The notes below the pieces were generated by a model, which ran no database searches, was not told where the DNA came from, and saw only the letters and a list, made by a program, of their open reading frames with translations. 64,000 bases of DNA from an uncultured Phycisphaerae bacterium. GTDB taxonomy: Bacteria; Planctomycetota; Phycisphaerae; UBA1845; PWPN01. Positions within the stretch are counted from its first letter, which is position 1. Every line of letters begins with the position of its first letter. The DNA lies in the NCBI GenBank assembly GCA_938005315.1, contig CALLOB010000005.1, positions 19,413 through 83,412 of the forward strand. The letters run 5' to 3'. Of the stretch, positions 12,709 to 48,573 are shown piece after piece. The translations under genes and the position numbers were made by a program.

Positions 12709-14058
12709 GTGTCGGAAAACCCGGGCCGTTCGCCGGACCCGGCGGGCGGGCCCCGCCGCCGGCAGAAACCGGCACCCTCCGACGGCCGACGGCTTCCCGC
12801 GAGACGATCCCGGCCCGAGCGGCCGGGCACGGGCCGCATCCGCCGCTTTCGTGCCCGGTTGCTGGCGTGGTACGACGCGCACCGCCGGGATCTTCCCTGG
12901 CGCCGCCGGCCCGACGACGCCTGGGCCCAGCTGGTGGCCGAGTTCATGCTCCAACAGACGCAGGTCGCCACCGTCACCGCCTACTACGAGCGGTTCCTGC
13001 GGCGTTTCCCCACGGTGGAGTCCCTGGCCCGGGCCCCGCAGGAGGCTGTCCTGGCCCTGTGGTCGGGCCTGGGCTATTACCGCCGCGCGAGGATGCTTCA
13101 CGAGGCGGCCCGGCGCATTGTTCGGGAGCACGGCGGCGAGGTGCCCTCGACGGTGGATGAACTGGCCCGGCTGCCGGGCATCGGGCGCTACACGGCCGGC
13201 GCCATCGCCAGTATCGTTTTCGGGCGGCGGGAACCGGTGCTGGACGGCAACGTCCGGCGGGTGTTGATCCGCTGGCAGGCAACCGACGGAGACCCGGACG
13301 CGCCGGACCTGCGGAAGCGGTTATGGGACCTGGCCGAGGCGCTGGTTCCGCGGCGGCGACCGGGGGACTTCAACCAGTCGCTGATGGAACTGGGCGCGAC
13401 GGTCTGCACGCCGCGGGCGCCGGGCTGCGGCGTCTGTCCGCTGCGGCGGTCCTGCGCTGCCCGACGCCTGGGACTGACGGAGATCCTTCCGCGAGCGAAA
13501 CGGCGCCGGACTCCGGAAGCTTTGAACATCGTCGCTCTGGCGGTCGAGCGGGACGGACGGCTGCTGTTCGTGCGGCGCCCGGCCAGGGGGCTCTGGGGCG
13601 GGCTCTGGGATCTGCCCACGGAAGCGGTCGCTTGCGGTGAGCGACCGACACAGGCTCTCAGGCGGCTGGTCCGGAGGCTTGCGGGCGGCCGCCGGGCGGT
13701 CGGCCGGCCGGTCGGGCGGATCACGCGTCTGCTGACCCACCGCAAAGTGACGTTCCGCCTTTACCGCCTGACCGGCACGCCCGCGGCGCGGGGCATTCCT
13801 GCGGGCCGGCGGGCCGGCGACACCGGTTACCGATGGCTGAAGCCCGACGAATCCGGCCGGGTGGGCGTGAGCCGCGCGGTACAGTCGCTGATCGCGATGC
13901 TGGACCGGCACCGATCCCGTAGGCGGTTCAGGCGGCCGGAGGCCGACCGGCCGGGGCGTCGTTCCAGAGATCAGCTTCAGGGTGCCGCCGCGGAGGAGGC
14001 TGGCGAGGAGTCGGGCTGCGGCACGGTCAGCCTCACCGGCACTTCCACCGACGGCTGA
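12709..14058 (+). CDS. mutY: A/G-specific adenine DNA glycosylase
   Basis: Contains LLAWYDAHRRDLPWR, FMLQQTQV and the HhH motif LPGIGRYTAGAI. The 4Fe-4S ligands follow CTPRAPGCGVCPLRRSC (C-x6-C-x2-C-x5-C). A NUDIX-like C-terminal part is present. The start is uncertain: GTG 12709 or TTG ~12859. The upstream part of ORF 11851..14058 is antisense to the hydrolase. Confidence 0.75.
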   Translation: MSENPGRSPDPAGGPRRRQKPAPSDGRRLPARRSRPERPGTGRIRRFRARLLAWYDAHRRDLPWRRRPDDAWAQLVAEFMLQQTQVATVTAYYERFLRRFPTVESLARAPQEAVLALWSGLGYYRRARMLHEAARRIVREHGGEVPSTVDELARLPGIGRYTAGAIASIVFGRREPVLDGNVRRVLIRWQATDGDPDAPDLRKRLWDLAEALVPRRRPGDFNQSLMELGATVCTPRAPGCGVCPLRRSCAARRLGLTEILPRAKRRRTPEALNIVALAVERDGRLLFVRRPARGLWGGLWDLPTEAVACGERPTQALRRLVRRLAGGRRAVGRPVGRITRLLTHRKVTFRLYRLTGTPAARGIPAGRRAGDTGYRWLKPDESGRVGVSRAVQSLIAMLDRHRSRRRFRRPEADRPGRRSRDQLQGAAAEEAGEESGCGTVSLTGTSTDG

Positions 14059-32336: not shown

Positions 32337-32410
32337 GGGCGTTTAGCTCAGTTGGCTAGAGCGTACGGATCACACCCGTAAGGTCACTGGTTCGAGTCCA
32401 GTAACGCCCA
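32337..32410 (+). tRNA. tRNA-Val (anticodon CAC)
   Basis: I folded the cloverleaf by hand. Acceptor GGGCGTT/AACGCCC; D stem GCTC/GAGC; anticodon stem TACGG/CCGTA; loop AT-CAC-AC; variable loop AGGTC; T arm ACTGG-TTCGAGT-CCAGT; discriminator A. No CCA is encoded. 74 nt. Confidence 0.9.
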
Positions 32411-32540
32411 TCTCTTTCTTGCCTGAACCCTGGTCAGTGGGAATGTTGCGGTTCCAAGCGCGGTTGGTCGCCGCGAGAAGTGCCGCAGTGCACGGCAGGC
32501 GGCGCGGGCGCGGTCGTCTCGCCGGGTCGCGGCGATGTCG

Positions 32541-32639
32541 GTCGGATAAGGGGACACGGTCGGACAAGGGGACATTTGCATTGGTCGCAAAAGTCGGACA
32601 AGGGGACATTTTCATTGGTCGCAAAAGGGGACATTCTCC
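32541..32639 (+). repeat. Tandem 34-nt direct repeats with core AAGGGGACAT (2 full and 2 partial copies)
   Basis: GTCGGATAAGGGGACAC is followed by two near-identical units GTCGGACAAGGGGACATTT(G/T)CATTGGTCGCAAAA at 32559-32592 and 32593-32626, then AAAGGGGACATTC. The same 13-mer is inverted at 32787-32799. Confidence 0.85.
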
Positions 32640-32880: not shown

Positions 32881-35800
32881 TCAACCCGCTTTGGCGGCGG
32901 CAAGACCGTGGGTTCGCAGCTCGGGCCAGCGGACCGGAACGACCGGACCTCGCCCCGTGGATTCCTCTGCGTCGGCCGCGCCGATCTTACGGGCGGGCGG
33001 GCGGCCGGCCATGTCGGCGGCACTGCGCGCGATCGCGGCCAGCAATTCCTTGACGGCGGATCCGGCCTCCGAGCCCCGATCGACCAGTTGCCGCAACTCC
33101 TCGGCCACCCCCTCGGCATGACCGACCAGGGCGTCAAGCTGCGCCCGGGATTGACGGCTCTGTTCCTCCAGGCGCCGCCGTGCGACGGCCTCGACCCGCG
33201 CGAGACGCTGAGCCCACTCCTGCTGGCGTTCCTCGGCCTGGCGGAGGCTGTCATGGACCGCATCGTTGCAGCGCTGCAATGCCTTGAGGATGCCCGCCGA
33301 CGACCGGGCCGAGGTCTTGAGCTGCTCAGCCTGAGCACGAACGGCGTCGGCGTTTTCCGACCAGCCCGCCAGCGCCTCGGTCACACGTCGAGCGGAATCC
33401 TCCAGTTGCGTCCCGACGGCCTGGGCCTGCTCGATCAGCGTCTCCAATCGATCGGCCTGGGCTAGAGCCTGTTCATTCAGCCGTCCGAGCCGGGCGGCCG
33501 CCTGCGGGGCGAGTTGGATCTTCACCGGCCGCGGGCGCTCGCGTTCCTCCAGCAGTCTGATGCGCTGGGTCAGGGTTTCAATGACCTCGACGAAGGTCTG
33601 GGCGTCGCTGGCTTGCCGTCCGCCGATCTCGCCCAGACGCGACTTCAGCCCCTCCAGCGCCTGAGTGATCGACTCCTGTGCCGCGCGGAATGTCGCCACC
33701 GGCGTGGAGGAGTTGGCCAGCTGCTCGACGCTGTCCCGCAGCGTTTGCCAGCGGGCCCCCAGGTCGCCGAGACGCTCTTCGTGGCGGCGACGGGTCTCCT
33801 GCAGGCGGGCCAGCAGCGCCCGCACATGCTGGTCGTGCCGTCTGCGGAGTTCGGCCACGTCCTCGTTGGACGCGGCGCGGGCCTCCAGGGCCTGCAGCGC
33901 CGCGCCGGTCTGGTCGCAGCGTCCGTTGACCTGGCGGATCGCCTCCTCCAGTTCCGACTTGCGGGCTGCCACCAGAGCCTCAAACCGCTCGCTGAAGCTC
34001 GCGACCAGGGATTCCAGTTGCGCGCGGCTCTCGCTGACGGCCGTTCTGACCTCCTCGGCGTCGCGGGCCTGCCGGGCGCGCAGCGCCTCCACAGCGACAC
34101 GATCGGCGGCGCGCTCGCGCAGTGCCTCCAGCTGCTCCTGAGTGCGCTCCCAGCGGGACAACGCGCCGTTCAGCCGCTCGTCCATCGACCGCCGGATGCC
34201 CTGCAGCTCCTCCAGCAGACCTTCCACGTCCTGCCGCTGACGGGCGACGAGTCCGGCGAGCTCCTGGCCGCCGGCCTGGGCCGTGCGGCTCAGGCGGTCG
34301 ATTTCCTCCTGGGCGGCGCGGCATAGCGCCTCGAGTTCGTCGAGCCGTCGCCTAGCGTCCTGCCGGCCGGCGGCGATCTCGGCCGTCAACCGCTCATCCA
34401 GCTCGCGCCTCTGGGCGTCCTGCTGTTCGCGGGCCGCCTCCAGGTCTTCCCGGCGGGCGAATTCCTCGGCCAGGACCGACAGCTGCTCCCGGATGTCGGC
34501 ATGCTGGCGGACCAGGCGCTGTCGCAGCCCGGACAGCTCGCAGGCCTCGTCGACAATCCGCTGAGCCAGTTCCTCGAACGCCCGACGCTGCTCTCCGGAA
34601 AGCTCCGCCGCCCGGGCATCGACCTGCCGGCGCATGTCCGCCAGCTCCAGGGCCTGTTGCGCGAGTCGGTTTTCCAGCTCGCCCAGCGCCCGTTCCTGCT
34701 CGTTGCGGACGTGCTCCAGATCGTGCAGGGAGGGCGTCTGCTCGCGCAGGGCGGCCACAGAGGCAGCCACCGCCTCGAGCCGCTCCCCGATATCCCGGGC
34801 CAGCGCCTGCCCGGCGGCCTCGCAACCGGCCACCCTGCTGCCCAGGCGCTCCAGCGTCTCGGCCTGGGCCGCCTGATCGCGCTGCTGCTGGGCCAGTTCC
34901 TTGCCCAGACGCTCCAGCGTCTCGGTCCGGGCCGTCTGATCGCACCGCTGCTGGGCCAGTTCCTCGCTCAGACGCTCCATGTCGCGATCCTGTCGCTCCT
35001 GGTTGAGGGCAAGCGATGCGATGCGGGCTTCGGTGTCCTCGCACTGGCGCTGGATCAGGGGCACCAGTTCAGCGACCTGTGCCTGATAGGCCTCCAGCTG
35101 CCCGACGGCCTCCTCGATGCGTTTCTCGAGCTGGCTCTCCAGTTCCTCGAGCGTCTCGGCACTGACGGCTTCCCGAGCCAGTCCGGCGACGCGCTGGCGG
35201 GTTTCGATCCAGTGTTGCTCGTTCTGCTCGAAGAGCCGCTGGAATTCCTCTCGCTGACGGGCGATTCGTTCCAGCAGCTCAGCCGTACCCTGCTGGTGCA
35301 GGCGTCGGATCTCGTCCAGGGCCTCGGCGGACGAACCGCTCCGGTCGACCCGCTCGATCTGCTGCTCGGCGGCCCGGCAGCGGGCCATGGTCTCGTCAAT
35401 GATCGCGTGCAGATCCTCGCGGCAGATGCCCAGTTCACTGCGGGCGGCGTTCCATCGTGACGCGACCTGGTCGACGATCTCCTCGATCTCCTCGCGCCTC
35501 GGCCGTTCACGGCCGAGCCGGGCCTGCAGCCCTGCGGCCGAGGACTCGATGATCTCCAGAGCCCGTTCGATCCGCCGATGGATGGCCTGCGGCTCCAGAT
35601 CCGGGAGGGTCGAAACCTTCGGGACGCCCCCCTCCACCCCGGCTTCCTGTTCAACACGCTCGGAAACCTGGACGACCTCGGGCCGGACCCCGTAGATGGC
35701 CTCGATGCGGGCCTGGGTCTGTTCGGGCGTCGGCGCGGCCGCCTGCTCCTCGGCCTCCAAAACCTGATCGAGGATGACGTTGTCCACGATCCGGCTGTCC

Positions 35801-36549
35801 AGCCCATAGGCGGTCAGCAGGGCGTTGTCGCAGATCTGGTTGATCACCCGCGGTATGCCCGCCGACGCCCGGAAGATCCGGGCCAGGGCGTGCGGCGTGA
35901 AGACCTCCGTCTCCGGCGGACAGCCGGCGACCGCCATGCGGCTGCGGACGTACTCGGCGGTCTGCTCGGCGGTCAGGGCCCGCAGGTGGAAACGCCGGAA
36001 AAGCCGCTGGTTGAGCTGTCTCATGTCCGACCGTGCGAAACGGTCGCGGAGCTCGGGCTGCCCGAGGATGCAGATCTGGAGGAGCTTGGCGTCGTCGGCC
36101 TCGAGATTGCCCAGCATCCGCAGCATCTCGAAGCTCTCGTCGGGCAGGTCCTGGGCCTCGTCGAGCACCACCACCACCAGCCGGTCGGCGGCGAACTCGC
36201 GGAGCAGGTACTGCTGGAGCGTCTCCACCAGTTGCAGATTGCTGCTCTCGGGCGGGCAGGGAAGGTTGAACTCGGCGCAGATCGCCGCCAGCAGCTGTCG
36301 GGCGGACAGCTGGTTCTGGGTGATGACCGCCACGCTGCCCAGCGGTTCGATCTGGCGGGCGAACATCCGGGCGACAAGCGTCTTGCCGGACCCCACCTCG
36401 CCGGTAATCAGCACGAATCCCTTGCGCTGCTGGCAGGCGTACTGCAGGGTGGCCAGGGCCTCTTCGTGGTCCGGGGTCCGGTAATAGAAGGTCGGATCCG
36501 GGGTGTTGTTGAACGGCGGCCGGTGCAGGCCGAAGTGAGCGCAGTACAT
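32881..36549 (-). CDS. ExeA-like AAA ATPase (PEP-CTERM-locus secretion-ATPase type) fused to a ~950-aa coiled-coil region
   Basis: ORF track, 1222 aa. The N-terminus is MYCAHFGLHRPPFNNTPDPTFYYRTPDHEEALATLQYA. Walker A is GEVGSGKT and Walker B is VVVVLDEAQ. GIPRVINQICDNALL is ExeA/GspA-like. From ~aa 290 onward the sequence is E/R/Q/A/L-rich and heptad-like to the C-terminus. RBS is GGAGAgcgatcc-ATG. No TM segment is visible. Confidence 0.8.
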   Translation of the reverse strand: MYCAHFGLHRPPFNNTPDPTFYYRTPDHEEALATLQYACQQRKGFVLITGEVGSGKTLVARMFARQIEPLGSVAVITQNQLSARQLLAAICAEFNLPCPPESSNLQLVETLQQYLLREFAADRLVVVVLDEAQDLPDESFEMLRMLGNLEADDAKLLQICILGQPELRDRFARSDMRQLNQRLFRRFHLRALTAEQTAEYVRSRMAVAGCPPETEVFTPHALARIFRASAGIPRVINQICDNALLTAYGLDSRIVDNVILDQVLEAEEQAAAPTPEQTQARIEAIYGVRPEVVQVSERVEQEAGVEGGVPKVSTLPDLEPQAIHRRIERALEIIESSAAGLQARLGRERPRREEIEEIVDQVASRWNAARSELGICREDLHAIIDETMARCRAAEQQIERVDRSGSSAEALDEIRRLHQQGTAELLERIARQREEFQRLFEQNEQHWIETRQRVAGLAREAVSAETLEELESQLEKRIEEAVGQLEAYQAQVAELVPLIQRQCEDTEARIASLALNQERQDRDMERLSEELAQQRCDQTARTETLERLGKELAQQQRDQAAQAETLERLGSRVAGCEAAGQALARDIGERLEAVAASVAALREQTPSLHDLEHVRNEQERALGELENRLAQQALELADMRRQVDARAAELSGEQRRAFEELAQRIVDEACELSGLRQRLVRQHADIREQLSVLAEEFARREDLEAAREQQDAQRRELDERLTAEIAAGRQDARRRLDELEALCRAAQEEIDRLSRTAQAGGQELAGLVARQRQDVEGLLEELQGIRRSMDERLNGALSRWERTQEQLEALRERAADRVAVEALRARQARDAEEVRTAVSESRAQLESLVASFSERFEALVAARKSELEEAIRQVNGRCDQTGAALQALEARAASNEDVAELRRRHDQHVRALLARLQETRRRHEERLGDLGARWQTLRDSVEQLANSSTPVATFRAAQESITQALEGLKSRLGEIGGRQASDAQTFVEVIETLTQRIRLLEERERPRPVKIQLAPQAAARLGRLNEQALAQADRLETLIEQAQAVGTQLEDSARRVTEALAGWSENADAVRAQAEQLKTSARSSAGILKALQRCNDAVHDSLRQAEERQQEWAQRLARVEAVARRRLEEQSRQSRAQLDALVGHAEGVAEELRQLVDRGSEAGSAVKELLAAIARSAADMAGRPPARKIGAADAEESTGRGPVVPVRWPELRTHGLAAAKAG
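34841..34980 (-). repeat. 63-nt (21-aa) tandem duplication inside the coiled-coil ORF
   Basis: The units at 34841-34903 and 34904-34966 differ at ~7 of 63 positions by my hand alignment, and a partial third unit follows. The protein units are EELAQQRCDQTARTETLERLG and KELAQQQRDQAAQAETLERLG. Confidence 0.8.
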
Positions 36550-36800
36550 GGATCGCTCTCCTGGGAGCCCGGCGGCCCCGGGTTATCGGACATCCTCCCG
36601 GGTCGACCGGCTCAGCGCGTTCTATCGGACCTGCCCGGAGCCGGCTTGAGGTCGGCGGGAGGGTCCGCAAAAAAAACGGAGATAAGTCACCACCGCCCCA
36701 TCGGGTGCCGATAGTCCCATCACCGAGGGACCGGAGACCGGCGTCGGCCGGATCGGGACCCGGCCCTGCGGGCGGACACGGACGAGCCTTCGCGTCAGGG

Positions 36801-37631
36801 ATGACGACGATGCGATACACCTCCTTGAGACGCTGGCGGAATCCGGCGCTGACGGCGCTGTGCGGACTGGCCGCCGCCGCGTCGGCCGGGTGCGCCAACA
36901 AGTACGACGACATGAAGGTCTTCATGCGGGCCCACGAGAACGAGGTCGCGGGCACGATCTACCGCCTGGAGCCCCCGGACGTGATCGTGATCAACTCGCC
37001 GACCTGCCCGGAGGTGGACAACGAGGTCCAGCGCATCCGGGCCGACGGCAAGATCTCCCTGGACCTGCTGGGCGAGGTCTACGTGGCCGGCATGAGCCCG
37101 GCCGAGATCGCGGCCAAGCTCCAGGAGCAGCTCGCCCGCTACTACGAGAACCCCCGCGTCGATGTGCGCGTGGCCGCCTACGAGAGCAAGAGCGTCTACG
37201 TATTCGGGCAGGTCGCCGTGCCCGGACCGCATCCCTTCACCGGCCGCGACACGCTGATGGACGTGCTGGCGCGGGCCCGACCGACCTTCATCGCCTGGGG
37301 GGCGCAGGTCAAGGTCATCCGTCCCAGCGCCCGTCCCGACGAACGCCGCGAGATCACCGTGGACGTCGACAGGATCGTCGAGACCGGCGACATGCGCGAC
37401 AACCTGCTCCTGCAGGAGGGCGATATCGTCTACGTCCCGCCGACCCCGCTGGGATGGGTCGGGCTGCGGGTCAACGAGGTGCTGTTCCCGGTCTCGCCGA
37501 TGCTGTCGGCCTACCAGATGCCGTACCACTTCCGGGACTCGACCGACCACTACCGTTACGGGTCGTACTACCACTACAAGCATGACGATGACGACAACAA
37601 AGGGGGATACCGGAGGCTGCTGTTCAGGTAG
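36801..37631 (+). CDS. Polysaccharide export (OPX, Wza-like) lipoprotein
   Basis: The lipobox is AAAASAGCA. The Poly_export-like part has YRLEPPDVIVI...IRADGKISLDLLGEVYVAGMSPAEIAAKLQEQL. The SLBB-like part has VYVFGQVAVPGPHPF...LQEGDIVYVP. The C-terminal tail is unusually Tyr/His-rich. Confidence 0.8.
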   Translation: MTTMRYTSLRRWRNPALTALCGLAAAASAGCANKYDDMKVFMRAHENEVAGTIYRLEPPDVIVINSPTCPEVDNEVQRIRADGKISLDLLGEVYVAGMSPAEIAAKLQEQLARYYENPRVDVRVAAYESKSVYVFGQVAVPGPHPFTGRDTLMDVLARARPTFIAWGAQVKVIRPSARPDERREITVDVDRIVETGDMRDNLLLQEGDIVYVPPTPLGWVGLRVNEVLFPVSPMLSAYQMPYHFRDSTDHYRYGSYYHYKHDDDDNKGGYRRLLFR

Positions 37632-37667: not shown

Positions 37668-39446
37668 ATGAGTATACAACCCTCTCCCATCATCCTCGGA
37701 CCGCGGGTCGGAGCCCGTGCCGACGACGCTGAGAACGGCGACCTCGGCCGGGTGCTCGCCCGGGTGATGGCCATTCTGAGCCATCGCCGCTGGCTGTTCG
37801 CCATCCCGCTGCTGGCGGGCATGGCCTTTAGCCTGAGCGTCGCTCTGTGCCTGCCCCGCCAGTACCAGGTGAAGGCGATCATCGAGCGGCGCGACGACGA
37901 GGTCCTCACCAAGCTGGTCAGCTACAACTCCCCGACGCGCTTCGAGACCGTGCGCCGCTCCATCCGCATCGACCTGGCGGGCTACGAGGCCATTCGTCGG
38001 GCCGCCGACGAGCTCGGCCTGCTGGCCGGGCTGCCCCGCGACGCCAACGGCGCCCTGACGCCGCACGGCGAGGCCATGTGCCACGAGTTCCTGAGCAACC
38101 TGGCGTCGCAGCTCACGGTCGGGACCATCGACCAGAGCACCTACCTGGACCTCATCGAGATCCGCTATGCCGGCGACGATCCCGAGATGGCCGTCCGGCT
38201 GATCCGGCAACTCAAGGACAACTACATCGCCCAGACCCAGAACTTCATCACCGAAACCATGCGCGAATCGGAGCAGTTCTTCGAGGACAAGGTCCGCACC
38301 TGCCGCGAACAGGTCGCACGCATGCAGGTCGAACTGCTCCAGATCGAGGCCGAACAGCCCGGCATCTCGCCCAATCGACCCTCCGAGCTCGAGGACCTGA
38401 TCCGGCTGGAGATCAAGTCCATCGAGGAGCTCACCGGACGCAAGGCCCAGGTGGCCATGGACCTCTCCGGGCTCGAGGAAACCCTCCGTCAGCTGGCGGC
38501 CCGCGAACAGGCCGGCGATGCCAGCGGCGGACCGATGCCGGAACTGCTGCCTCTGACCGCAACCCACCTGATCCCCAATCCGCAGCGCTCCGCCCTGATG
38601 GCGGAAATGAACAATGTGCGTTCGCAGATCGCCGACGCCAAGTCCATGCGTCAGATGAAGGACGCCCATCCGACGGTGCTCAACCTCCGCGAGAAGCTCC
38701 GCCAGCTCCAGTCGGAGTTCGAACGGCTTCCGGAGATGATCGAGGCCCAGCCGGCGCCGCAGCCGGCTTCCGCGGACCGCTCCGGCCTGCCGCCGATCGT
38801 GGCCGCCCGCCAGCGGGTCGATCGCGAAATCGAGATCCTCCGCCGCAACCTGGCCAGCCTGGAGGACGCCCTTGCCGGGCATGTCGCCCGCCGCGCCGAA
38901 CTGGAGGCCCAGCGGCAGACCCTGCCCGACCGCCGCAAGGCCTACATGCAGCGGCTCGCGGCCCTGCGCGACGCCCAGGCCGAGGCCGAGATGTGGAGCG
39001 GGCACCTGGCCGACGTCCGCCAGCGTCTGACCGCCGCCGACGAGAACCGCGGCGTCAGGTTCTCCACCGTCGAGGAGCCGCGCGTCCCGATGCGCCCGCT
39101 CTCCCCGAAACTGTCGAGCGTGCTGCTGGTCTCGGCCGGAGTCGGAATGGCTTTGGGTGTCGCCGCCGTCTTCCTCCGGGAAGTCATGGATACCACCCTC
39201 CGGGACCCGATGCGTGTCTCCCAGATCCTCGGGATCCCGGTGCTCGAGATCGTCGGACGCATCAGCGTGACCGGTCGACGGCGCTTCTTCTCGCGCCGAG
39301 GGCTGCTGCCGGCCGTCGCCTGGGTTCAGGGAGTGTTGGTTCTCGTCCTCGGCGGCCTGTTCTACCTGAGCGTCGAGCGGCCGCGGACCTATGACGAGAT
39401 CCGGGAAAAGGCCAGCGGTGTCGTCGCCTCCCTGCGGAGGGACTGA
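37668..39446 (+). CDS. Polysaccharide chain-length determinant (PCP, GumC/Wzz-like)
   Basis: The N-terminal TM segment is WLFAIPLLAGMAFSLSVALCL. A long coiled periplasmic region follows, then the C-terminal TM segment LSSVLLVSAGVGMALGVAAVFL. It sits between the OPX and kinase-like genes. Confidence 0.75.
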   Translation: MSIQPSPIILGPRVGARADDAENGDLGRVLARVMAILSHRRWLFAIPLLAGMAFSLSVALCLPRQYQVKAIIERRDDEVLTKLVSYNSPTRFETVRRSIRIDLAGYEAIRRAADELGLLAGLPRDANGALTPHGEAMCHEFLSNLASQLTVGTIDQSTYLDLIEIRYAGDDPEMAVRLIRQLKDNYIAQTQNFITETMRESEQFFEDKVRTCREQVARMQVELLQIEAEQPGISPNRPSELEDLIRLEIKSIEELTGRKAQVAMDLSGLEETLRQLAAREQAGDASGGPMPELLPLTATHLIPNPQRSALMAEMNNVRSQIADAKSMRQMKDAHPTVLNLREKLRQLQSEFERLPEMIEAQPAPQPASADRSGLPPIVAARQRVDREIEILRRNLASLEDALAGHVARRAELEAQRQTLPDRRKAYMQRLAALRDAQAEAEMWSGHLADVRQRLTAADENRGVRFSTVEEPRVPMRPLSPKLSSVLLVSAGVGMALGVAAVFLREVMDTTLRDPMRVSQILGIPVLEIVGRISVTGRRRFFSRRGLLPAVAWVQGVLVLVLGGLFYLSVERPRTYDEIREKASGVVASLRRD

Positions 39447-39491: not shown

Positions 39492-40424
39492 ATGGGTCGC
39501 ATCGCAGAAGCACTGAAACGCGCACAGGAGGAGAGACTTCGAAGGCGCGAGGCCGCCGGGGCCGCCCCGGGTGGTCCGCCGGCCGGCGCCGCGCGAGAGG
39601 GCGTCCCGGACGCCGGAGCCCGCGCCCCCGACGCCGCAGCCTCCACGACCGCGAGGTTCGGGGCGCTCTTCGACCTCCCGGCCATGCCCCGGCCCTTCAT
39701 CGTCAGCGCCTCCCCGCTGCCGCCGGAATCCGTCGATCGCCGGCTGGTCAGCTTCCACGAACCGTCCCTGGTCGTATCCGAGAAGTACCGGGCCATCCGC
39801 ACGCGGCTCCTGACCGCCAATCCCGACGGCGGCTCGCGCATCTACGCCGTGGCCTCCAGCCTCCACGGAGAGGGCCGGTCGGTCAGCGTCGGCAACCTGG
39901 GATTCTGCTTCGCCGAGCTGCGCCATCTTCGCGTGGCCATGGTGGACTGCGATCTGCGCCGCCGGGGCCTCAGCGATCTGTTCTCCGCCGCCGACAAGCC
40001 CGGCCTGGTGGATGTGATCCGGGGCGACAGACCGCTCTCGGAGGTCTGCCTGCCCGTCGTGCGCGGCAACCTGCATCTCATTCCCTCGGGAGACCCGGCC
40101 GGCGAGAGCCCCAGCGACCTGTTCGGCGGCTCCCGGCTGGCCTCGATCTTCCAGGAGATCCGCGAGCGCTTCCACTACGCGCTGGTGGACACGCCACCCA
40201 TGGACACCTTCGCGGACATCGGCCTGGTGGCTCCACTCTGCCACTCGACGCTGATCGTCATCCGCCTGAACAGCACCCCGGAAGGCGTCCTGCGACGCTG
40301 CGTGCGGATGCTGCAGGCCAACCGGATTCCCATCGCCGGATCTATCCTGGTCGGCGAGTGCCACAACGGCCTGGCCCGGCCCGAGTCCAGCGATTACTAC
40401 AACCCCCTTGCGGCGGAGGCATGA
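39492..40424 (+). CDS. BY-kinase-like (CpsD/CapB/EpsG-type) P-loop protein with Lys-to-Arg Walker A
   Basis: Walker A' is VAMVDCDLRRRGL and Walker B is YALVDTPPM. The Walker A position reads SSLHGEGRSVS where the family has GEGK[ST]. The C-terminus has only a DYY pair. Confidence 0.7.
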   Translation: MGRIAEALKRAQEERLRRREAAGAAPGGPPAGAAREGVPDAGARAPDAAASTTARFGALFDLPAMPRPFIVSASPLPPESVDRRLVSFHEPSLVVSEKYRAIRTRLLTANPDGGSRIYAVASSLHGEGRSVSVGNLGFCFAELRHLRVAMVDCDLRRRGLSDLFSAADKPGLVDVIRGDRPLSEVCLPVVRGNLHLIPSGDPAGESPSDLFGGSRLASIFQEIRERFHYALVDTPPMDTFADIGLVAPLCHSTLIVIRLNSTPEGVLRRCVRMLQANRIPIAGSILVGECHNGLARPESSDYYNPLAAEA

Positions 40425-41491
40425 ACATGCCCCCGACGGTCCGCGAACTCGACGCCGCCGCGCGGGGCCGATGGGACGAGTACGTCCGGGACCATCCGGA
40501 GGCGACCTTCTTCCACACGCCGGTCTGGCAGGATGCCGTGGAGACCGCCTTCGGGCACGCCCCCTGCGCCCTAGCCGCCTGGCGGGGCGAACGGCTGACC
40601 GGCGTGTTTCCGCTGTTCCGCGTCGAGAGCCGTCTGGCCGGGCGCATCCTGGTGAGCACCCCCTACGCGGTGTATGGCGGGACCCTGGCCGACGACGCCG
40701 AATGCCACCAGGCGCTGCTCGAGGCCGCCCTGGAACGCGCCCGGAGCATGCGCGTCCGGTGGATCGACATCCGCTCCGAAAAGGCGCATTGCCCGGACCT
40801 GCCGGTGGTGAATCGCTATGTCACCTTCCGCCGCGCGCTGCCGGAGGACCCGGCCGAGGTTCTCGCCCGGCTGCCCCGCAAAGCCCGGGCGGCCGCACGT
40901 CATGCCCGCGAGCGATTCGGGCTCCAGATCGTCTTCGGCGACGAGTGCCTGCCGACCGTCTGGAAACTCTACAGCCGCAGCATGCGGAGGCTGGGCTCGC
41001 TGAATTACCCGCAGGGATTTTTCGAAGCACTGATACGCAGCACGCCGGCCGGCCCGGCAGATCCCCAGGCGCCCGGCCATCTGGTCCAGCTCGTGCTCCA
41101 CCGTGACAGACCCATCGCCGGCCTGCTGAGCTTCACGTTTCGCGGGGTGATGATGCCCTACTTCGCCGGCTGCGACGAGCGTTTCGAGAGGTACCACCCC
41201 AACAACCTCATGTACCTGGCCGCGATGGAGGAGGCGGTGCGCAGGGGGTGCCGGGTGTTCGATTTCGGCCGCAGCCGCGTCGACAACGCCGGGGTCTGCG
41301 ACTTCAAACGCTTCCAGGGGTTCCAGCCTCGGCCGCTGGAGTACCAGTACGCGTCGCTGCGGGGATCTGAGGCGCCGAACCTGCATCCGGACAACCCCCG
41401 GCTGGCCGTCGCCCGCAGACTCTGGCCGCGGCTTCCGCTGGCGGTCACGCGGCCGCTGGGAGCCTGGCTGGCACGCTCGATTCCGGGCTGA
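40421..41491 (+). CDS. FemAB-related / GNAT-fold acyltransferase (PEP-CTERM-locus type)
   Basis: The ATG overlaps the previous stop (ATGA). Contains WDEYVRDHPEATFFHTPVWQDAV, STPYAVYGG, YSRSMRRLGSLNYPQGFF, MPYFAGCDERFERYHPNNLMY and FDFGRS. Confidence 0.7.
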   Translation: MNMPPTVRELDAAARGRWDEYVRDHPEATFFHTPVWQDAVETAFGHAPCALAAWRGERLTGVFPLFRVESRLAGRILVSTPYAVYGGTLADDAECHQALLEAALERARSMRVRWIDIRSEKAHCPDLPVVNRYVTFRRALPEDPAEVLARLPRKARAAARHARERFGLQIVFGDECLPTVWKLYSRSMRRLGSLNYPQGFFEALIRSTPAGPADPQAPGHLVQLVLHRDRPIAGLLSFTFRGVMMPYFAGCDERFERYHPNNLMYLAAMEEAVRRGCRVFDFGRSRVDNAGVCDFKRFQGFQPRPLEYQYASLRGSEAPNLHPDNPRLAVARRLWPRLPLAVTRPLGAWLARSIPG

Positions 41492-41554: not shown

Positions 41555-42859
41555 ATGAGACTGCTGTTTCTCATCCATCGCCTGCCCTGTCCGCCCGACC
41601 GCGGGGCCAAGCTGCGCGCCGCGGCGCTGCTGGACTGGCTGGCCCGCCGCCACGAACTGTGGTGCGCCGGCTTCCTGGATCCGCCCGCCGGCCGGGAGCA
41701 CGCTGCCCAGACCGCCGAGTCCCTGGCCCGCTGGCGCGGCCTCTGCCGGGAGGTCTCGGCCCTGCCGCTTCGCCCGGCGACGGCGACGTGCCGGGCCCTG
41801 GCCGGGCTGACCGCCGGCGGCACCGCCACCGAAAACTACTTCCGCTCGGCCCGCCTCGAACGGCAGATCGCCGACTGGGGTCGGCGGATCGGCTTCGACG
41901 CCGTGCTGGCCTTCTCCTCCAGCATGGCCCCGGCGGCGCTGAGCGTGCCGGCGCCGCGCCGGGTGCTGGTTATGGATGACCTGGACAGCCGCAAGTGGGC
42001 CCAGTCCGCGGCCCGCTCCGTCTGGCCCGCCCGTCAGCTTTATGCCCTGGAGGCCTCCCGGCTGGCCGACCGCGAACGCGCCTGGATCGCGGCCTTCGAC
42101 GCCACCGTGCTGGTCAGCCGACGCGAGGCGGAGGCCGTGACCGACCCCGCCCTGCGCGCCCGGGTGCACGTCATTCCGGCTGGAGCCGGAGCGGGCTTCG
42201 GGGATGCCCCGGCCGCCGACCCGCCGCCGCTGCCGGACGACGATGTCGTCGGCTTCGTCGGGGCCATGGACTACGAGCCCAACATCGACGCCGCCAGGTG
42301 GCTTGCCGGGTCGATCTGGCCGCTGATCCGAGCCCGCCGCCCCTCGGCCCGGCTGTGGATCGTGGGACGCTCTCCGACCCGCGCCGTGCGGCGGCTCGAC
42401 GGGCGCGACGGCATCCGTGTGACCGGCACCGTACCCGACGTCGGCCCCTGGCTGGCCGGCATGTGCGTGCATGTCGCTCCGCTGCGGCTGGCCCGCGGCG
42501 TCCAGATCAAGGTGCTCTCGGCCATGGCGGCCGCGCGGCCCTGCGTGGTGACGCCCGAGGTCGCCGAAGGCCTCGGCGCCGACCCCGGGCGCGACCTGCT
42601 GGTGGCCTCCGGCGCCCGGGACATCGCCGGGGCGGTGGTCGATCTGCTGGAGGACCGAATGCGGGCCCGAACAATCGGGCTGAACGGGCTGGCCTTTGTC
42701 CGGGAAGGCGGCGGCGCCTCCCGGGGCCTGCTGCGTCTGGAGGAACTGTTGGGAGGAAACCCCGGCGACACGGGACGGCCGGCGCACGAACGAACCGCGA
42801 ACCCGGCTGCGATCCGCCGGGTCCCCGCGTCCGGGAGGGTGGTCGCCCTGCCGGCATGA
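41555..42859 (+). CDS. GT4-family glycosyltransferase (resembles the PEP-CTERM/EpsH1-associated sugar transferase type)
   Basis: Starts MRLLFLIHRLPCPPDRGAKLRAAALLDWLARRHEL. Contains FVGAMDYEPNIDAARWL and APLRLARGVQIKVLSAMAAARPCV. Confidence 0.75.
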   Translation: MRLLFLIHRLPCPPDRGAKLRAAALLDWLARRHELWCAGFLDPPAGREHAAQTAESLARWRGLCREVSALPLRPATATCRALAGLTAGGTATENYFRSARLERQIADWGRRIGFDAVLAFSSSMAPAALSVPAPRRVLVMDDLDSRKWAQSAARSVWPARQLYALEASRLADRERAWIAAFDATVLVSRREAEAVTDPALRARVHVIPAGAGAGFGDAPAADPPPLPDDDVVGFVGAMDYEPNIDAARWLAGSIWPLIRARRPSARLWIVGRSPTRAVRRLDGRDGIRVTGTVPDVGPWLAGMCVHVAPLRLARGVQIKVLSAMAAARPCVVTPEVAEGLGADPGRDLLVASGARDIAGAVVDLLEDRMRARTIGLNGLAFVREGGGASRGLLRLEELLGGNPGDTGRPAHERTANPAAIRRVPASGRVVALPA

Positions 42860-46264: not shown

Positions 46265-47272
46265 ATGGCCGTGTTGGAAGCTGAAACCCCCGCGGCCGCG
46301 GGCTCGACGCTCGACATCCGGGCGTACGTCGATCCCCGCCGGCCGCTGAGCTGGTCGGCCCAGATGGTCGCCCTGCTGCGCGACGGGCATTACGCCGAGG
46401 CCTACGGCATCCTGGCCGAGAAGATGCCGTTCGTCGAGAACCAGCTGCGACCCTATGCCGAGTGCCTGGCCGGCGTCCGCAACCACTGGACGATGGTCCA
46501 CGACCGCATCGCCGGCCTGATGCCGCCGGGCGACAACCAGCGGATCCTCGACGTGGGCTGCGCTGTCGGCAGTCACGCCGTCGAGTTCGCCCGCAAGGGC
46601 CACCGCACCTGGGGCGTGGACATCCTGCCGGCGATGATCGACCGCGGCCGCGAGCTGGTCGATTCGCTCGGCCTGCAGGACCGCTGCACGCTGCTGACCG
46701 GCGACATCCGCCGGCTGGAACAGCTCTTCGAGCCGCACACATTCGACGCGGCCGTGGCCTGCGACATCTTCGAGCATCTCGACGATGCGTCGCTGCTGAC
46801 GCTTCTGGCGGGCCTGAGGCATGTGCTGCGGCCCGGCGGCACGATCATCATCCAGACCTCGCCGGGCCGGCATTACTACTGGTTCGACCCGGACCGCATC
46901 AAGCTGCTGGCCCTGCTGGCGCCGATGGCCTGGCTGCCGGACCGTCTGTTCACCGCCTGGGTGCGCGGGCTGGAACGCGGCCCGCTGCGGCGGCTGCGAT
47001 CCGAACACGAGCGCTTCTACCGCCACGAGCACGGGCACTTCAACTGCCTGGATCCGGTCCACCTGCGGGGGCTGCTCCGGCGGGCGGGGCTGCGCGACAT
47101 CCGGGTCTTCGCCGAGCACACCCACCCGGGCTTCAAGGACGAGGGCTGCCGCCGGACTTGGTGGGGCCGGCTGCTGTTCGGACGCAAGTCCGTTGCCTGC
47201 CGCAACCTCTACGGCCTGGCCCGGACGCCCGAATGCCGCGACCGGCCCGCCCCGCCGGAGGACCGGTCATGA
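46265..47272 (+). CDS. Class I SAM-dependent methyltransferase
   Basis: Contains ILDVGCAVGSHAVEFARKGHRTWGVDILPAMI, FDAAVACDIFEHL and LRPGGTIIIQT. Confidence 0.7.
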   Translation: MAVLEAETPAAAGSTLDIRAYVDPRRPLSWSAQMVALLRDGHYAEAYGILAEKMPFVENQLRPYAECLAGVRNHWTMVHDRIAGLMPPGDNQRILDVGCAVGSHAVEFARKGHRTWGVDILPAMIDRGRELVDSLGLQDRCTLLTGDIRRLEQLFEPHTFDAAVACDIFEHLDDASLLTLLAGLRHVLRPGGTIIIQTSPGRHYYWFDPDRIKLLALLAPMAWLPDRLFTAWVRGLERGPLRRLRSEHERFYRHEHGHFNCLDPVHLRGLLRRAGLRDIRVFAEHTHPGFKDEGCRRTWWGRLLFGRKSVACRNLYGLARTPECRDRPAPPEDRS

Positions 47273-48573
47273 GCGCCGCCGGCGGCAACGCCATCGAGGT
47301 TCGCGGGCTGTGGAAGCGCTTCCGCAAGGGCGGCCACGAGGGGCTGCTGTGGGAGCAGCTGGTCCGCGCCGCGGCCCGACTGGCCGGCCGGAGCTCCGGG
47401 CGGGAGTCCTTCTGGGCCCTGCGCGATGTCGGTTTCGAAGTCCGCAGGGGCGAGGCCGTCGGCATCATCGGTCCCAACGGCGCCGGCAAGAGCACCATCC
47501 TCAAGGTGCTCTCCCGCGTCCTGAAGCCCGACCGCGGCGAAGTGGCCGTTCACGGCCGGCTCAGCGGGCTGATCGAGGTCGGCGCCGGCTTCCACGGCGA
47601 CCTCTCCGGCCGCGAGAACATCTTCGTCAACGGGGCCATTCTGGGCATGAGCCGGGCCGAGATCCGCCGCAAGTTCGACCGCATCGTGGACTTCGCCGGC
47701 ATCCGCGAGTTTCTGGACATGCCCGTGAAACGCTACTCCTCGGGCATGTACGTGCGCCTGGGCTTCTCGGTCGCCGCCCACATGGAACCCGACATCCTCC
47801 TGGTCGACGAGGTGCTCAGCGTGGGCGACGTGGCCTTCAAGGTCAAGTGCATGGATGTCATGCGCGGCTTCCTCCGCCGCGGCACGTCGGTGATCTTCGT
47901 CTCGCACAATCTGGCGGCCATCAAGCGTTTCTGCGACCGCGTGGTGCTGCTCGACCACGGCCGCATCCGCCGCATCGGCACACCGGATGAGGCCATCGCG
48001 GAGTACAGCCGGCTGGTGACCGACCTGGAGGACGCCAACCCGGCCGGCGCGGAGGGATCGCACCTCGGCGGACGCGCTGCCGCACCCGGACGCCGGGCCC
48101 GCATCGACGCGGTGCGCCTGCTCAGGGCCGACGGCCGGCCGGCCTCGACGTTCGTATCCGGCGAGCCGGTCCGGCTGGAGATCGACTACCACATCGATCC
48201 GGCCGACGGCGGCCTGGTCGATCCCAACTTCGCCGTGTCGGTCCACATGTTCGGCGCCGGGCTGTTCTTCCAGTTCGACGCCCGGCGCGACGGGCTGCGG
48301 CTGGGACGTTGCGCCGGCAAGGGCACGGTGGCCGTGGACCTGCCCCACCTGGGGCTGGGTGAGGGCATCTACCAGGTCGGAGTGGCCATCGCCGACGAGA
48401 AGGGCCTGCCCGAACACGACTGGCACGACCGCGCGTACCGCATCAGCGTGGTCGCCGACGGAAAGACCGACGGGCCGGTGCATCAGCCGCGGCGATGGAG
48501 CGCCGTCGCCGTTTCGGCACCTCGTGCCGAGACGGGCCGTGAGTCCGCCGCGGCAGTGGAGGCCGTATGCTGA
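47269..48573 (+). CDS. wzt: Polysaccharide ABC exporter ATP-binding protein with C-terminal carbohydrate-binding-type extension
   Basis: The ATG overlaps the previous stop (ATGA). Walker A is GPNGAGKST, the signature is YSSGMYVRL and Walker B is ILLVDEVLS. A ~170-aa beta-rich C-terminal domain is present (VRLLRADGRPASTFVSGEPVRLEIDYH...YRISV). Confidence 0.85.
   Translation: MSAAGGNAIEVRGLWKRFRKGGHEGLLWEQLVRAAARLAGRSSGRESFWALRDVGFEVRRGEAVGIIGPNGAGKSTILKVLSRVLKPDRGEVAVHGRLSGLIEVGAGFHGDLSGRENIFVNGAILGMSRAEIRRKFDRIVDFAGIREFLDMPVKRYSSGMYVRLGFSVAAHMEPDILLVDEVLSVGDVAFKVKCMDVMRGFLRRGTSVIFVSHNLAAIKRFCDRVVLLDHGRIRRIGTPDEAIAEYSRLVTDLEDANPAGAEGSHLGGRAAAPGRRARIDAVRLLRADGRPASTFVSGEPVRLEIDYHIDPADGGLVDPNFAVSVHMFGAGLFFQFDARRDGLRLGRCAGKGTVAVDLPHLGLGEGIYQVGVAIADEKGLPEHDWHDRAYRISVVADGKTDGPVHQPRRWSAVAVSAPRAETGRESAAAVEAVC

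Follow-up and report, generated by a model that had tools for sequence, protein, structure and literature searches.

A large Phycisphaerae family joins an ExeA-type AAA+ ATPase to a long helical tail and is encoded divergently from polysaccharide export genes

An AAA+ ATPase that runs on into a long helical tail is encoded head-to-head with polysaccharide export genes in the window analysed here, a 64-kb stretch of DNA from an uncultured Phycisphaerae bacterium, and it belongs to a large conserved Phycisphaerae family, not to an oddity of one genome. Relatives are encoded in 152 species-level genomes, and the 80 genomes that were inspected all proved to be Phycisphaerae/Planctomycetota MAGs (80/80). 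The family is common in this mostly uncultured group, yet it is unstudied. Our search of the literature found no description of an ATPase carrying such a tail, which agrees with the earlier note, where the architecture was regarded as undescribed. That note had also considered that the fusion might turn out to be a common, already characterised family; common it is (152 genomes), characterised in the literature it is not, so that only half of this description applies. We propose that the protein works in the cytoplasm as an accessory ATPase specific to the adjacent polysaccharide polymerisation/export machine, made up of OPX, PCP, a BY-kinase-like protein and glycosyltransferases, a role for which we would place belief and doubt at about the same level.

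The gene is real, intact and selected. Its complete CDS (32881..36549, minus strand, on which all features of the protein given below also lie) is one uninterrupted ORF of 1222 aa, and the full-length protein was found identical on two other contigs (P0001/P0121), including a second assembly. With an orthologue at 77-87% identity as reference, dN/dS was 0.08 for the AAA+ domain, 0.59 for the linker, 0.24 for the tail and 0.26 for the C-terminal block; the tail is thus under purifying selection. The second assembly and the dN/dS of the tail bear out the claim that the ORF is full-length with no split between ATPase and tail. It was nonetheless reasonable to suspect that the ORF is mis-joined or frameshifted, or is a long shadow frame in a 70% GC genome, as long spurious ORFs do arise in high-GC DNA (one such is the antisense ORF of 320 aa at 34501-35460) and the nearest orthologous contig, L005, shows a frame change at codon ~530. 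We consider this explanation refuted; the break in L005 is a 100-N scaffold gap, which excludes a real frameshift, and the identical copies and the selection on the tail are joined by end-to-end alignment with dozens of full-length homologues and by a GC3 that stays high (0.78-0.92) through codons 1-1200, falling to 0.68 in the last 22 codons.

Beyond the ATPase start lies a divergent intergenic region of ~250 bp (36550..36800), after which the export genes run on the plus strand. They encode an OPX lipoprotein of 276 aa with a Poly_export and one SLBB domain (36801..37631), a PCP / chain-length-determinant-like protein of 592 aa (37668..39446; TIGR03007 E 4e-29, weak GNVR), a BY-kinase-like P-loop protein of 310 aa (39492..40424; TIGR03018 E 8e-29, AAA_31), whose Walker A reads GEGRS in this locus, a FemAB-family XrtA/PEP-CTERM system-associated protein (40427..41491; TIGR03019, 302.1 bits, cut-off 260.35) and the stp1 PEP-CTERM/XrtA system glycosyltransferase (41555..42859; TIGR03087, 339.6 bits, cut-off 316.65). 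The divergent neighbours are the OPX, PCP and kinase-like genes that had been read there before, and the last two are markers of XrtA/PEP-CTERM-type EPS loci that score above their curated cut-offs. The 64-kb window showed neither an exosortase nor a PEP-CTERM protein, which counts against the accessory export ATPase. In all 59 loci where the ORF is complete and 5 kb or more of sequence is available upstream (59/59), OPX lies directly upstream on the opposite strand and is followed by the BY-kinase-like gene, with a median of 344 bp (range 154-686 bp) from the ATPase start to the OPX hit. The ATPase gene is invariably the divergent partner of these two genes, and its flank away from OPX is variable among loci. 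Taken together, the 59/59 synteny, the variable far flank and the XrtA/PEP-CTERM-type markers suggest a functional tie between the ATPase and the export genes.

The N-terminal part (residues 1-270; 35740..36549) is an AAA+ domain of the ExeA/GspA/TIGR03015 type with an alpha/beta core and a helical lid. Pfam AAA_22 matched residues 41-171 (E 3.6e-26) and the best family for residues 1-264 was NCBIfam TIGR03015 pepcterm_ATPase (E 1.2e-67, 228 bits), in line with the ExeA/GspA/PEP-CTERM-locus type assigned to this module from the letters. Its 228 bits fall below the curated cut-off of 324.5, which is a second point against the accessory export ATPase. The AF2 model of residues 1-270 had good pLDDT, and an alignment of 42 homologues revealed ~70 invariant columns in the domain. 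Walker A GEVGSGKT (residues 50-57; 36379..36402; G50, G53, G55, K56 and T57 invariant), Walker B VVVVLDEAQ (residues 125-133; 36151..36177; D130, E131 and Q133 invariant) and GIPRVINQICDNALL (residues 231-245; 35815..35859; G231, P233, R234, N237, D241 and L245 invariant), a lid helix with R234 as candidate sensor 2, all lie where the earlier note had them. Between the last two, GQPELRDR (residues 163-170; 36040..36063) comes after strand beta4 (E158-162) in the AF2 model; its G163, Q164, P165, E166 and L167 are invariant and R168 and R170 are kept in at least 90% of the homologues, and from AAA+ topology it is a candidate sensor-1 / arginine-finger region. The conserved N-terminus, MYCxHFGL...PF, belongs to the ATPase domain as well. 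The domain has an AAA+ fold with invariant catalytic motifs.

In Foldseek, the structural neighbours of residues 1-270 were Cdc6 (1fnn, E 2.6e-6), ORC, RuvB and MuB, which share the core-plus-lid fold (E 2.6e-6 to 1e-3, probability 1.0) at 15-19% identity. These are DNA-binding AAA+ proteins. The ATPase gene is a transcription unit of its own, divergent from the operon, and this layout, also typical of regulators, again speaks against an accessory ATPase. Perhaps, then, the protein is an AAA+ switch that controls transcription of the OPX-PCP-kinase operon by acting at the ~250-bp intergenic region between them, comparable to large transcription regulators with AAA_16/AAA_22 modules or to DNA-binding Cdc6/MuB; weak AAA_16 and Sigma54_activ_2 matches would fit as well. 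We find this improbable, since Pfam, NCBIfam and AF2 gave no DNA-binding domain across the 1222 aa, be it HTH, winged-helix or another type, and the genomic context also differs from that of Cdc6/ORC, MuB and RuvB. Moreover, the closest sequence family, TIGR03015/ExeA, comprises machine-associated ATPases, and such regulators offer no precedent for a 900-aa helical tail.

Comparison with known systems likewise places the ATPase domain near export machines. With the XrtA/PEP-CTERM ATPase of TIGR03015 it shares the P-loop and DEAQ box and a setting in an EPS locus where FemAB and the stp1 glycosyltransferase pass the XrtA-system models; it departs from that single-domain model of ~269 positions by ~950 extra residues, and from that system by its divergent transcription, its restriction to Phycisphaerae and the want of exosortase and PEP-CTERM protein in the window. 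GspA/ExeA of type II secretion and MshM of the MSHA pilus are accessory ATPases with a cytoplasmic AAA_22 ATPase and a conserved N-terminal FGL..PF segment, encoded beside an outer-membrane export channel, and these three traits are found here too. ExeA, however, contains a TM segment, carries a peptidoglycan-binding domain in the periplasm and acts with ExeB in secretin assembly, whereas our protein has neither TM segment nor peptidoglycan-binding domain, nor an ExeB or secretin neighbour, and the channel with which it is paired is of the OPX type. By context, the ATPase can be likened to PrmE of the promonan cluster of Sphingomonas sp. LM7, a precedent for an accessory export ATPase. PrmE is an AAA+ ATPase whose gene sits between those of Wza and Wzz, in a neighbourhood that also includes BY-kinase genes; it is needed for EPS production and was presented as an ATPase new to polysaccharide assembly (PMC11340318). 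Unlike the gene described here, prmE is alphaproteobacterial and lies inside the operon, and no long tail was reported for its product (PMC11340318).

The remainder of the protein (residues 271-1222) consists to 64% of A/E/R/Q/L. It begins with a disordered linker of 50 aa (residues 271-320; 35590..35739; AF2 pLDDT <50) that has 6 prolines and a semi-conserved RIEAIYGVRPE motif, followed by an all-helical amphipathic tail of ~840 aa (residues 321-1162; 33064..35589). AF2, run on the monomer only, divided it into 11 predicted helices (40-148 aa each) with interruptions of 2-12 aa between them, at a mean pLDDT of 77.5 over residues 321-1010, and every predicted helix had a hydrophobic periodicity of 3.5-3.65 residues (z = 3.8-10.5 against shuffles). 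The tail had no match in the PDB by fold or by sequence. Self-comparison of the protein revealed three clear copies of a 56-aa helical repeat at residues 407-462 (35164..35331; AF2 helix 408-459), 760-815 (34105..34272; AF2 helix 762-812) and 894-949 (33703..33870; AF2 helix 896-948), and an HMM built from them matched 55/124 family proteins and 0 shuffled tails. The strongest self-diagonal, at offset 21, is a 21-aa tandem unit (ETLERLGKELAQQQRDQAAQA) in ~2.5 copies (residues ~524-570; 34840..34980). The assembly gap of L005 falls exactly at these copies. Further on, residues 1004-1180 (33010..33540) form a conserved C-terminal block that begins with ERPRPVKIQL and has invariant P12, L18, W60 and W109 (alignment A3 numbering) and many columns at least 90% conserved; AF2 models its residues 1015-1162 as a single long helix. 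Behind a disordered spacer comes the C-terminal peptide WPELR (residues 1208-1212; 32914..32928), of the family form [IV]xWPxxR with which most subfamily-1 proteins end, and whose counterpart in the ~720-aa subfamily is RWPIR.

The tail is helical, repetitive and length-variable, and its dN/dS, conserved 56-aa repeats, C-terminal block and WPxxR motif argue that it is functional. Of the tail described in the earlier note, the E/R/Q/A/L-rich, heptad-like character stands, but the tail is neither homogeneous nor featureless, given the linker, the 11 helices, the repeats and the C-terminal block. A long helical extension with neither TM segment nor peptidoglycan-binding domain was rightly read; the top 19-residue hydropathy of the 1222-aa protein is 1.08, with no TM segment, and Pfam and NCBIfam searches of the tail gave no further domain, only weak SMC/Rad50-type compositional matches. 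No signal peptide was found either, and the protein should therefore be cytoplasmic, which makes the suggested polymer ruler unlikely. An SMC-scale coiled coil is not borne out, since the AF2 monomer consists of segmented helices and short turns and the SMC matches are compositional; judging by the model, the tail could equally well be a series of helical hairpins or bundles or a single long rod of two strands.

Those matches (SMC_prok_B at E 6.6e-14, ASRP and Rad50, over residues 710-1137) and the database name 'ExeA/chromosome segregation ATPase' of some homologues could be taken to indicate a coiled-coil ATPase associated with DNA or chromosomes, SMC/Rad50-like or otherwise, with no tie to polysaccharide export. 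As in SMC, Rad50 and MukB, the protein combines an ATPase with heptad-like helix that extends over hundreds of residues; in those proteins, however, an ABC-type head is split over the N- and C-termini and a hinge or zinc hook is present, whereas here a complete AAA+ module stands at the N-terminus only, with no hinge and no C-terminal head half. The scores, confined to the helical region, lie ~10-fold under the cut-offs (50.6 against 567), and the 59/59 OPX synteny would be left unexplained. We disfavour this explanation as very improbable.

A tail that self-assembles while the AAA+ head regulates polymer dynamics deserves more weight, although we still judge it unlikely. Such a positional or cytoskeletal organiser would determine where in the cell the export machines sit or gather, and would not act on their assembly chemistry. 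Scy, FilP and crescentin are coiled-coil-rich scaffolds without an ATPase domain, and their helical regions are long, repetitive and of differing length. The tail resembles them in being long, repetitive, heptad-like and helical, and the family ranges from 514 to 1943 aa, a variability expected of a structural element; repeat types differ between subfamilies while the helical character stays (subfamily 2 gives apolipoprotein-like Pfam matches), and the linkage to the export operon is conserved. Yet no sequence or fold similarity of the protein to Scy, FilP or crescentin was detected. The ~52-aa helices and tight turns of the AF2 tail fit intramolecular bundles equally well, and the conserved terminal peptide suggests docking, not a lattice. 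This organiser also overlaps the accessory ATPase and is inseparable from it in silico; a scaffold or positional-organiser role is possible.

For the accessory ATPase, the N-terminal 270 residues would be an oligomerising AAA+ switch whose ATP binding and hydrolysis control the assembly or activity of the export machine on the inner surface of the cytoplasmic membrane. The tail would serve as an elongated tether or scaffold, and the C-terminal block and terminal WPxxR peptide may dock on a partner, most plausibly a portion of the BY-kinase-like or PCP module that lies in the cytoplasm. That the head oligomerises, which partner it has, that the C-terminus docks and that export is affected are all inferred. 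Tail sequences and C-terminal motifs vary between subfamilies, which argues against one universal partner surface. In favour of the accessory ATPase, its length follows the content of the locus: the PCP gene is present in 38/59 loci, those with long ATPases, and long forms also accompany the FemAB and stp1 glycosyltransferase genes. Where a PCP gene is present the ATPases have a median of 1314 aa, and where it is missing, of 591 aa, a correlation that may be mere phylogeny.

The gene at 32881..36549 (-) is an uninterrupted ORF for a 1222-aa protein in which an AAA+ head (residues 1-270) is followed by a linker and a long helical tail, and the best-supported reading makes it a cytoplasmic AAA+ ATPase, accessory to the polysaccharide export machine encoded alongside. 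An earlier note, made from the sequence alone, had described an ExeA-like ATPase and a long extension within one ORF, and no break was found between them. An artefact, whether a mis-joined or frameshifted ORF, as the same note had considered, or a spurious one, is refuted by several findings. In this window of ~70% GC, the GC3 of the ATPase gene is 0.78-0.92 across codons 1-1200 and falls only in the final 22. The same 1222-aa protein, identical, is present on two other contigs (25.9 and 158 kb), and more than 40 full-length homologues can be aligned from residue 1 through the C-terminal motif. Identity to the nearest species-level orthologue, from the GTDB representative locus L005, is 87% over residues 1-530 and 77% over residues 519-1216, and dN/dS against it, computed from the tblastn HSPs on either side of a 100-N gap in L005, is 0.08 for the ATPase domain, 0.59 for the linker, 0.24 for the helical tail and 0.26 for the C-terminal block. 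An apparent frame change at codon ~530 of the L005 gene is this same scaffold gap (L005 ~7080-7180, corresponding to window 34840-34980), which lies right on a 21-aa tandem unit present here in ~2.5 copies (residues ~524-570, window 34840-34980). It makes gene callers split the gene, as in P0125, a 685-aa call of the tail only. The L005 break is an assembly-fragile spot and not a split gene, and internal repeats are weak points in short-read assemblies of this family. An antisense ORF inside the gene (34501-35460 (+), 320 aa, GC3 0.82) is not a gene but a shadow ORF cast by the high-GC coding strand.

The motifs quoted in the earlier note were all recovered: Walker A GEVGSGKT at residues 50-57 and Walker B VVVVLDEAQ, with its DEAQ box, at residues 125-133, both invariant in the family, and GIPRVINQICDNALL at residues 231-245. 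Pfam AAA_22 (PF13401) matches residues 41-171 (E 3.6e-26), and an AF2 model of residues 1-1200, based on an alignment of 42 sequences, has a confident alpha/beta domain at residues 1-270. When the model was compared with the PDB by Foldseek, matches were obtained in the N-domain only, to Cdc6 (1fnn, E 2.6e-6), ORC subunits, RuvB, RuvBL and MuB, all with a probability of 1.0, and they identify the N-domain as an AAA+ core plus helical lid. A PDB search by sequence with this domain returned a marginal UvrB match only (E 0.008). The head carries the features of the AAA+ superfamily, Walker A and B together with a candidate sensor-1/arginine-finger region and a candidate sensor-2, for which we infer the roles of the individual residues. 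Walker A, Walker B, G163-Q-P-E-L167 with R168 and R170, and P233-R234 are invariant or nearly so in the family, which indicates that the head would be an active, oligomerisation-dependent ATPase.

The top NCBIfam model for the protein is TIGR03015 (XrtA/PEP-CTERM system-associated ATPase), which aligns over residues 1-264 (model positions 1-263 of 269, E 1.2e-67) with 228.1 bits, under its curated cut-off of 324.5. TIGR03015 proteins resemble the head in their P-loop GxxGxGKT and DEAQ box and lie, likewise, in an EPS locus with XrtA-system markers, but they are single domains of ~270 aa compared with 1222 aa here. With a score under the cut-off and a different architecture, the ATPase appears to lie outside this family. 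GspA/ExeA share the N-terminal cytoplasmic AAA_22 ATPase, yet there it is followed by a TM segment and a periplasmic peptidoglycan-binding domain, both absent here as the earlier note had held: the tail has no hydrophobic segment, the highest 19-residue Kyte-Doolittle mean of the whole protein (1.08) falls inside the ATPase core, no PG_binding match was found at E <= 1 and the tail is all helix. GspA/ExeA also adjoin GspB/ExeB and the T2SS secretin, whereas the ATPase adjoins OPX, PCP, BY-kinase-like, FemAB and glycosyltransferase genes. The N-domain probably works like TIGR03015 and GspA/ExeA, to which it is most similar, whereas the whole protein does not qualify for either.

The final 952 residues consist to 64% of A/E/R/Q/L. 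AF2 predicts a disordered linker at 271-320 and then helix alone up to residue 1162, in 11 helices of 83, 52, 72, 60, 40, 105, 51, 70, 53, 52 and 148 residues separated by breaks of 2-12 residues, and a separate run on residues 321-1010 repeated the pattern with a mean pLDDT of 77.5. Hydrophobic residues recur every 3.5-3.65 residues in all 11 helices (z = 3.8-10.5 against shuffles), so the tail is heptad-like and amphipathic. The coiled coil proposed in the earlier note thus stands as regards long helix and heptad-type periodicity, but the AF2 monomer predictions equally fit antiparallel hairpins or bundles. A chain of these would be at least as likely as one long two-stranded coiled coil, because helices of ~52 residues are joined by turns of 3-4 residues. 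The tail gave no significant structural match in the PDB by Foldseek, only non-significant ones to generic helical bundles, and no PDB match by sequence.

The reading as an SMC-like chromosome protein is disfavoured; the earlier note had likened the coiled coil to SMC in scale. No Pfam or NCBIfam domain model matched in the tail beyond weak compositional matches to SMC, Rad50 and apolipoprotein, and SMC_prok_B, whose cut-off is 567, scores just 50.6 bits and aligns with residues 722-1035 alone. The ATPase is also of the wrong class, since SMC/Rad50 heads are of the ABC type and are formed from N- and C-terminal halves, while here an AAA+ N-domain is folded, and no non-helical globular segment in residues 321-1162 corresponds to the hinge or zinc hook that SMC/Rad50 carry mid coil. 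An SMC-like role would, moreover, leave the synteny with OPX unexplained. The protein is neither an SMC nor a Rad50 protein.

Within the tail, a 56-aa repeat occurs in three copies (residues 407-462, 760-815 and 894-949), each corresponding to one AF2 helix. A seed model built from these three copies alone and tested on other proteins and on shuffles detected the repeat in 55 of 124 family proteins, at 1-8 copies each, but not in any shuffle of matched composition. An iterative self-HMM on the single ATPase was dropped; from iteration 2 it takes in most of the tail and is circular on low-complexity helix. The tail also has a conserved C-terminal block (residues 1004-1180), which opens with ERPRPVKIxL and has an invariant P, L and two W. 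Beyond it, past a disordered spacer, comes the terminal motif [IV]xWPxxR, here VRWPELR at 1206-1212. Searched against an index of 5.8 billion proteins, where the word pre-filter was swamped by low-complexity helix, the profile of the block (alignment A3) gave 0 matches and a tail-only query retrieved only itself, the orthologue and the family protein P0035. Tails and conserved C-terminal peptides differ between subfamilies, the latter being SLGEIVxRNQKLNEWLR in proteins of 1000-2000 aa, RSFRWPIRGLFTRLRK in proteins of ~720 aa, PPLIEFDxRRA, and LARDLTHLAGMLNG. The first of these ends a second long subfamily (proteins P0058-P0119, loci L023-L084) with apolipoprotein-like Pfam matches in the tail, and with neither the 56-aa repeat nor WPxxR; its head and synteny are kept, and its tail is replaced or diverged beyond recognition. 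Short forms of the family, of 480-700 aa, have polar helical tails too and no TM segment.

The head-to-head placement with export genes that the earlier note described is seen in the window, where OPX (36801-37631 (+)), PCP (37668-39446 (+)) and a BY-kinase-like gene (39492-40424 (+)) diverge from the ATPase, and it recurs throughout the family. Of the loci, 59 have a complete ORF together with 5 kb or more of sequence upstream, and in every one of these 59 OPX is the next gene upstream of the ATPase, on the opposite strand, and is followed by the BY-kinase-like gene. The downstream flank differs and is unrelated from locus to locus (in the window, tRNA-Val and an aldo/keto reductase). Across loci the ATPase measures 514-1943 aa, with a median of 1314 aa where PCP is present (n=38) against 591 aa where none is detectable (n=21), a co-variation that may be phylogenetic. 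Loci with PCP usually also have FemAB and the stp1 glycosyltransferase; one minimal locus without it consists of the ATPase and, divergently, OPX, the BY-kinase-like protein and a GT4. The divergent operon in the window begins at 36.8 kb, extends to at least 64 kb and encodes OPX, PCP, BY-kinase-like, FemAB, stp1 and further glycosyltransferases, a deacetylase, methyltransferases, a Wzt-like ABC ATPase, a Wzy_C/O-ligase-like protein and AsnB-type amidotransferases. FemAB passes TIGR03019 (302.1, cut-off 260.35) and the stp1 glycosyltransferase TIGR03087 (339.6, cut-off 316.65), and XrtA-system models are the best matches, below threshold, for OPX, PCP, TyrK, the amidotransferase and the O-ligase-like gene. 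The ORFs scanned across the 64-kb window yielded no exosortase, no PEP-CTERM protein and no C-terminal PEP motif. The position of the ATPase gene would also suit a regulator of the divergent operon, but this alternative is weakened by the lack of a DNA-binding domain of any kind.

A protein search with the ATPase gave at least 172 relatives from Phycisphaerae/Planctomycetota MAGs, nearly all of 700-2100 aa, whose sole database names are 'AAA family ATPase', 'general secretion pathway protein A' and 'ExeA/chromosome segregation ATPase'. Searched exhaustively, the N-domain has 29,535 relatives at E <= 1e-3, of which 8,315 remain at E <= 1e-30. Among cluster representatives, the top 150 are nearly all at least 50% identical and span 329-2137 aa, about half exceeding 800 aa, with the AAA+ domain starting at or near residue 1 in almost all. 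At one genome per GTDB species, 152 genomes have a relative, and all 80 that were retrieved are Phycisphaerae/Planctomycetota MAGs, a restriction that is partly by construction, the search patterns being specific to this subfamily. The earlier note had allowed that the fusion might prove common and already characterised. Common it is, and conserved in Phycisphaerae, yet it is uncharacterised: as that note had supposed, no description was found in the literature searched of an ExeA-like ATPase that carries a long helical tail and belongs to a polysaccharide locus, and the ATPase goes unmentioned in the PEP-CTERM paper of Haft 2006. One functional precedent alone was found, PrmE of Sphingomonas LM7, likened here by its gene setting: it is an AAA+ ATPase encoded between Wza and Wzz, is required for EPS production and was described as an ATPase that had not been linked to polysaccharide assembly before (PMC11340318). 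The tailed architecture is real and is a lineage-specific elaboration of a known accessory ATPase, one that comes as a surprise for the polysaccharide-export field.

That the ATPase is strictly paired with OPX and BY-kinase-like genes, that its tail is under purifying selection and that its terminal motifs are conserved all point to a dedicated, partner-interacting role, and we infer how the accessory ATPase might work. The head would be an ATP-driven oligomeric switch, by analogy with GspA/ExeA and structurally similar AAA+ switches, the helical-repeat tail would form an elongated tether or scaffold, and the conserved C-terminal block and peptide would dock on a partner, most plausibly the cytoplasmic BY-kinase-like/PCP module. 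A rival reading, a cytoskeleton-like positional organiser, overlaps with this accessory role. We regard as rather improbable a bolder version, in which an AAA+ hub with long helical arms would be a cytoplasmic platform physically gathering and positioning several OPX/PCP/BY-kinase machines, for example at a pole or holdfast-like site, ATP turnover controlling its assembly, WPxxR serving as docking hook and tail length setting reach or spacing; if true, it would be a previously unknown cytoskeleton-like control layer over polysaccharide secretion. The earlier note had suggested a molecular ruler; a ruler of polymer length was judged unlikely, since the ATPase, with no export signal or TM segment, has no way of leaving the cytoplasm.

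Accounts of Wzx/Wzy-type polysaccharide export usually include a single cytoplasmic P-loop component, the BY-kinase, and we know of no mechanism for the second, AAA+ ATPase of such loci (TIGR03015 proteins, PrmE). Here one whole bacterial class keeps such a second ATPase strictly paired with OPX and BY-kinase-like genes and has lengthened it with helical repeats, 250 to 1700 residues in all, that terminate in a conserved peptide. The family offers handles on the role and contact of the second ATPase, in the form of catalytic mutants, tail truncations and the terminal motif, and, for Planctomycetota, whose cell biology is sparse, it is a further large family of uncharacterised proteins.

Several neighbours deserve mention in their own right. 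OPX (36801-37631 (+)) is a 276-aa lipoprotein (lipobox SAGC) with Poly_export and one SLBB domain. Since it lacks a C-terminal outer-membrane helix of the Wza type, it would need a separate outer-membrane partner, and none was identified adjoining its gene. The Walker A of the BY-kinase-like protein (39492-40424 (+), residues 126-130) is GEGRS, with K->R, in the window, in L005 and in L001, a sister assembly with an identical ATPase. Elsewhere it is QEGRT at locus L016 (K->R too), REGAT at locus L024 and GEGK[ST] at the other 60 or more loci. The C-terminus of the protein has only 'DYY' and no tyrosine cluster, and in this lineage the kinase may have become impaired or otherwise altered. The Wzt-like ABC ATPase (46462-48573 (+), start codon uncertain) carries a Wzt_C carbohydrate-binding domain, the Wzy_C/O-antigen-ligase-like membrane protein (59274-60635 (+)) has TIGR03097 as its top match, and their presence in one polysaccharide locus suggests a mixture of ABC-dependent and Wzy-dependent components. 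No Wzm permease was identified.

On the other flank, L001 carries an 8,061-bp insert between the ATPase and aldo/keto reductase genes (L001 9083-17186), encoding a tyrosine integrase, a DUF3987 primase-like protein and HTH proteins and flanked by a 22-bp direct repeat that matches the 3' end of tRNA-Val(cac) (window 32337-32410; repeat 32390-32411). The window represents the empty state of this integrative element, with its attachment site at tRNA-Val unoccupied. The spacer from the ATPase stop to tRNA-Val also contains a pair of imperfect direct repeats (32559-32633) of ~42 bp each, which are 93% identical and offset by ~33 bp. A terminator-like hairpin 28 nt past the stop (32853-32834 (-)) is well placed, but was rejected, such sites being no commoner than chance. 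Further away, a 750-aa protein (13977-16229 (-)) combines an OS_HP2 family (seleno)protein domain, at 103 bits just over the NCBIfam cut-off of 100, with a ResA-like thioredoxin domain.
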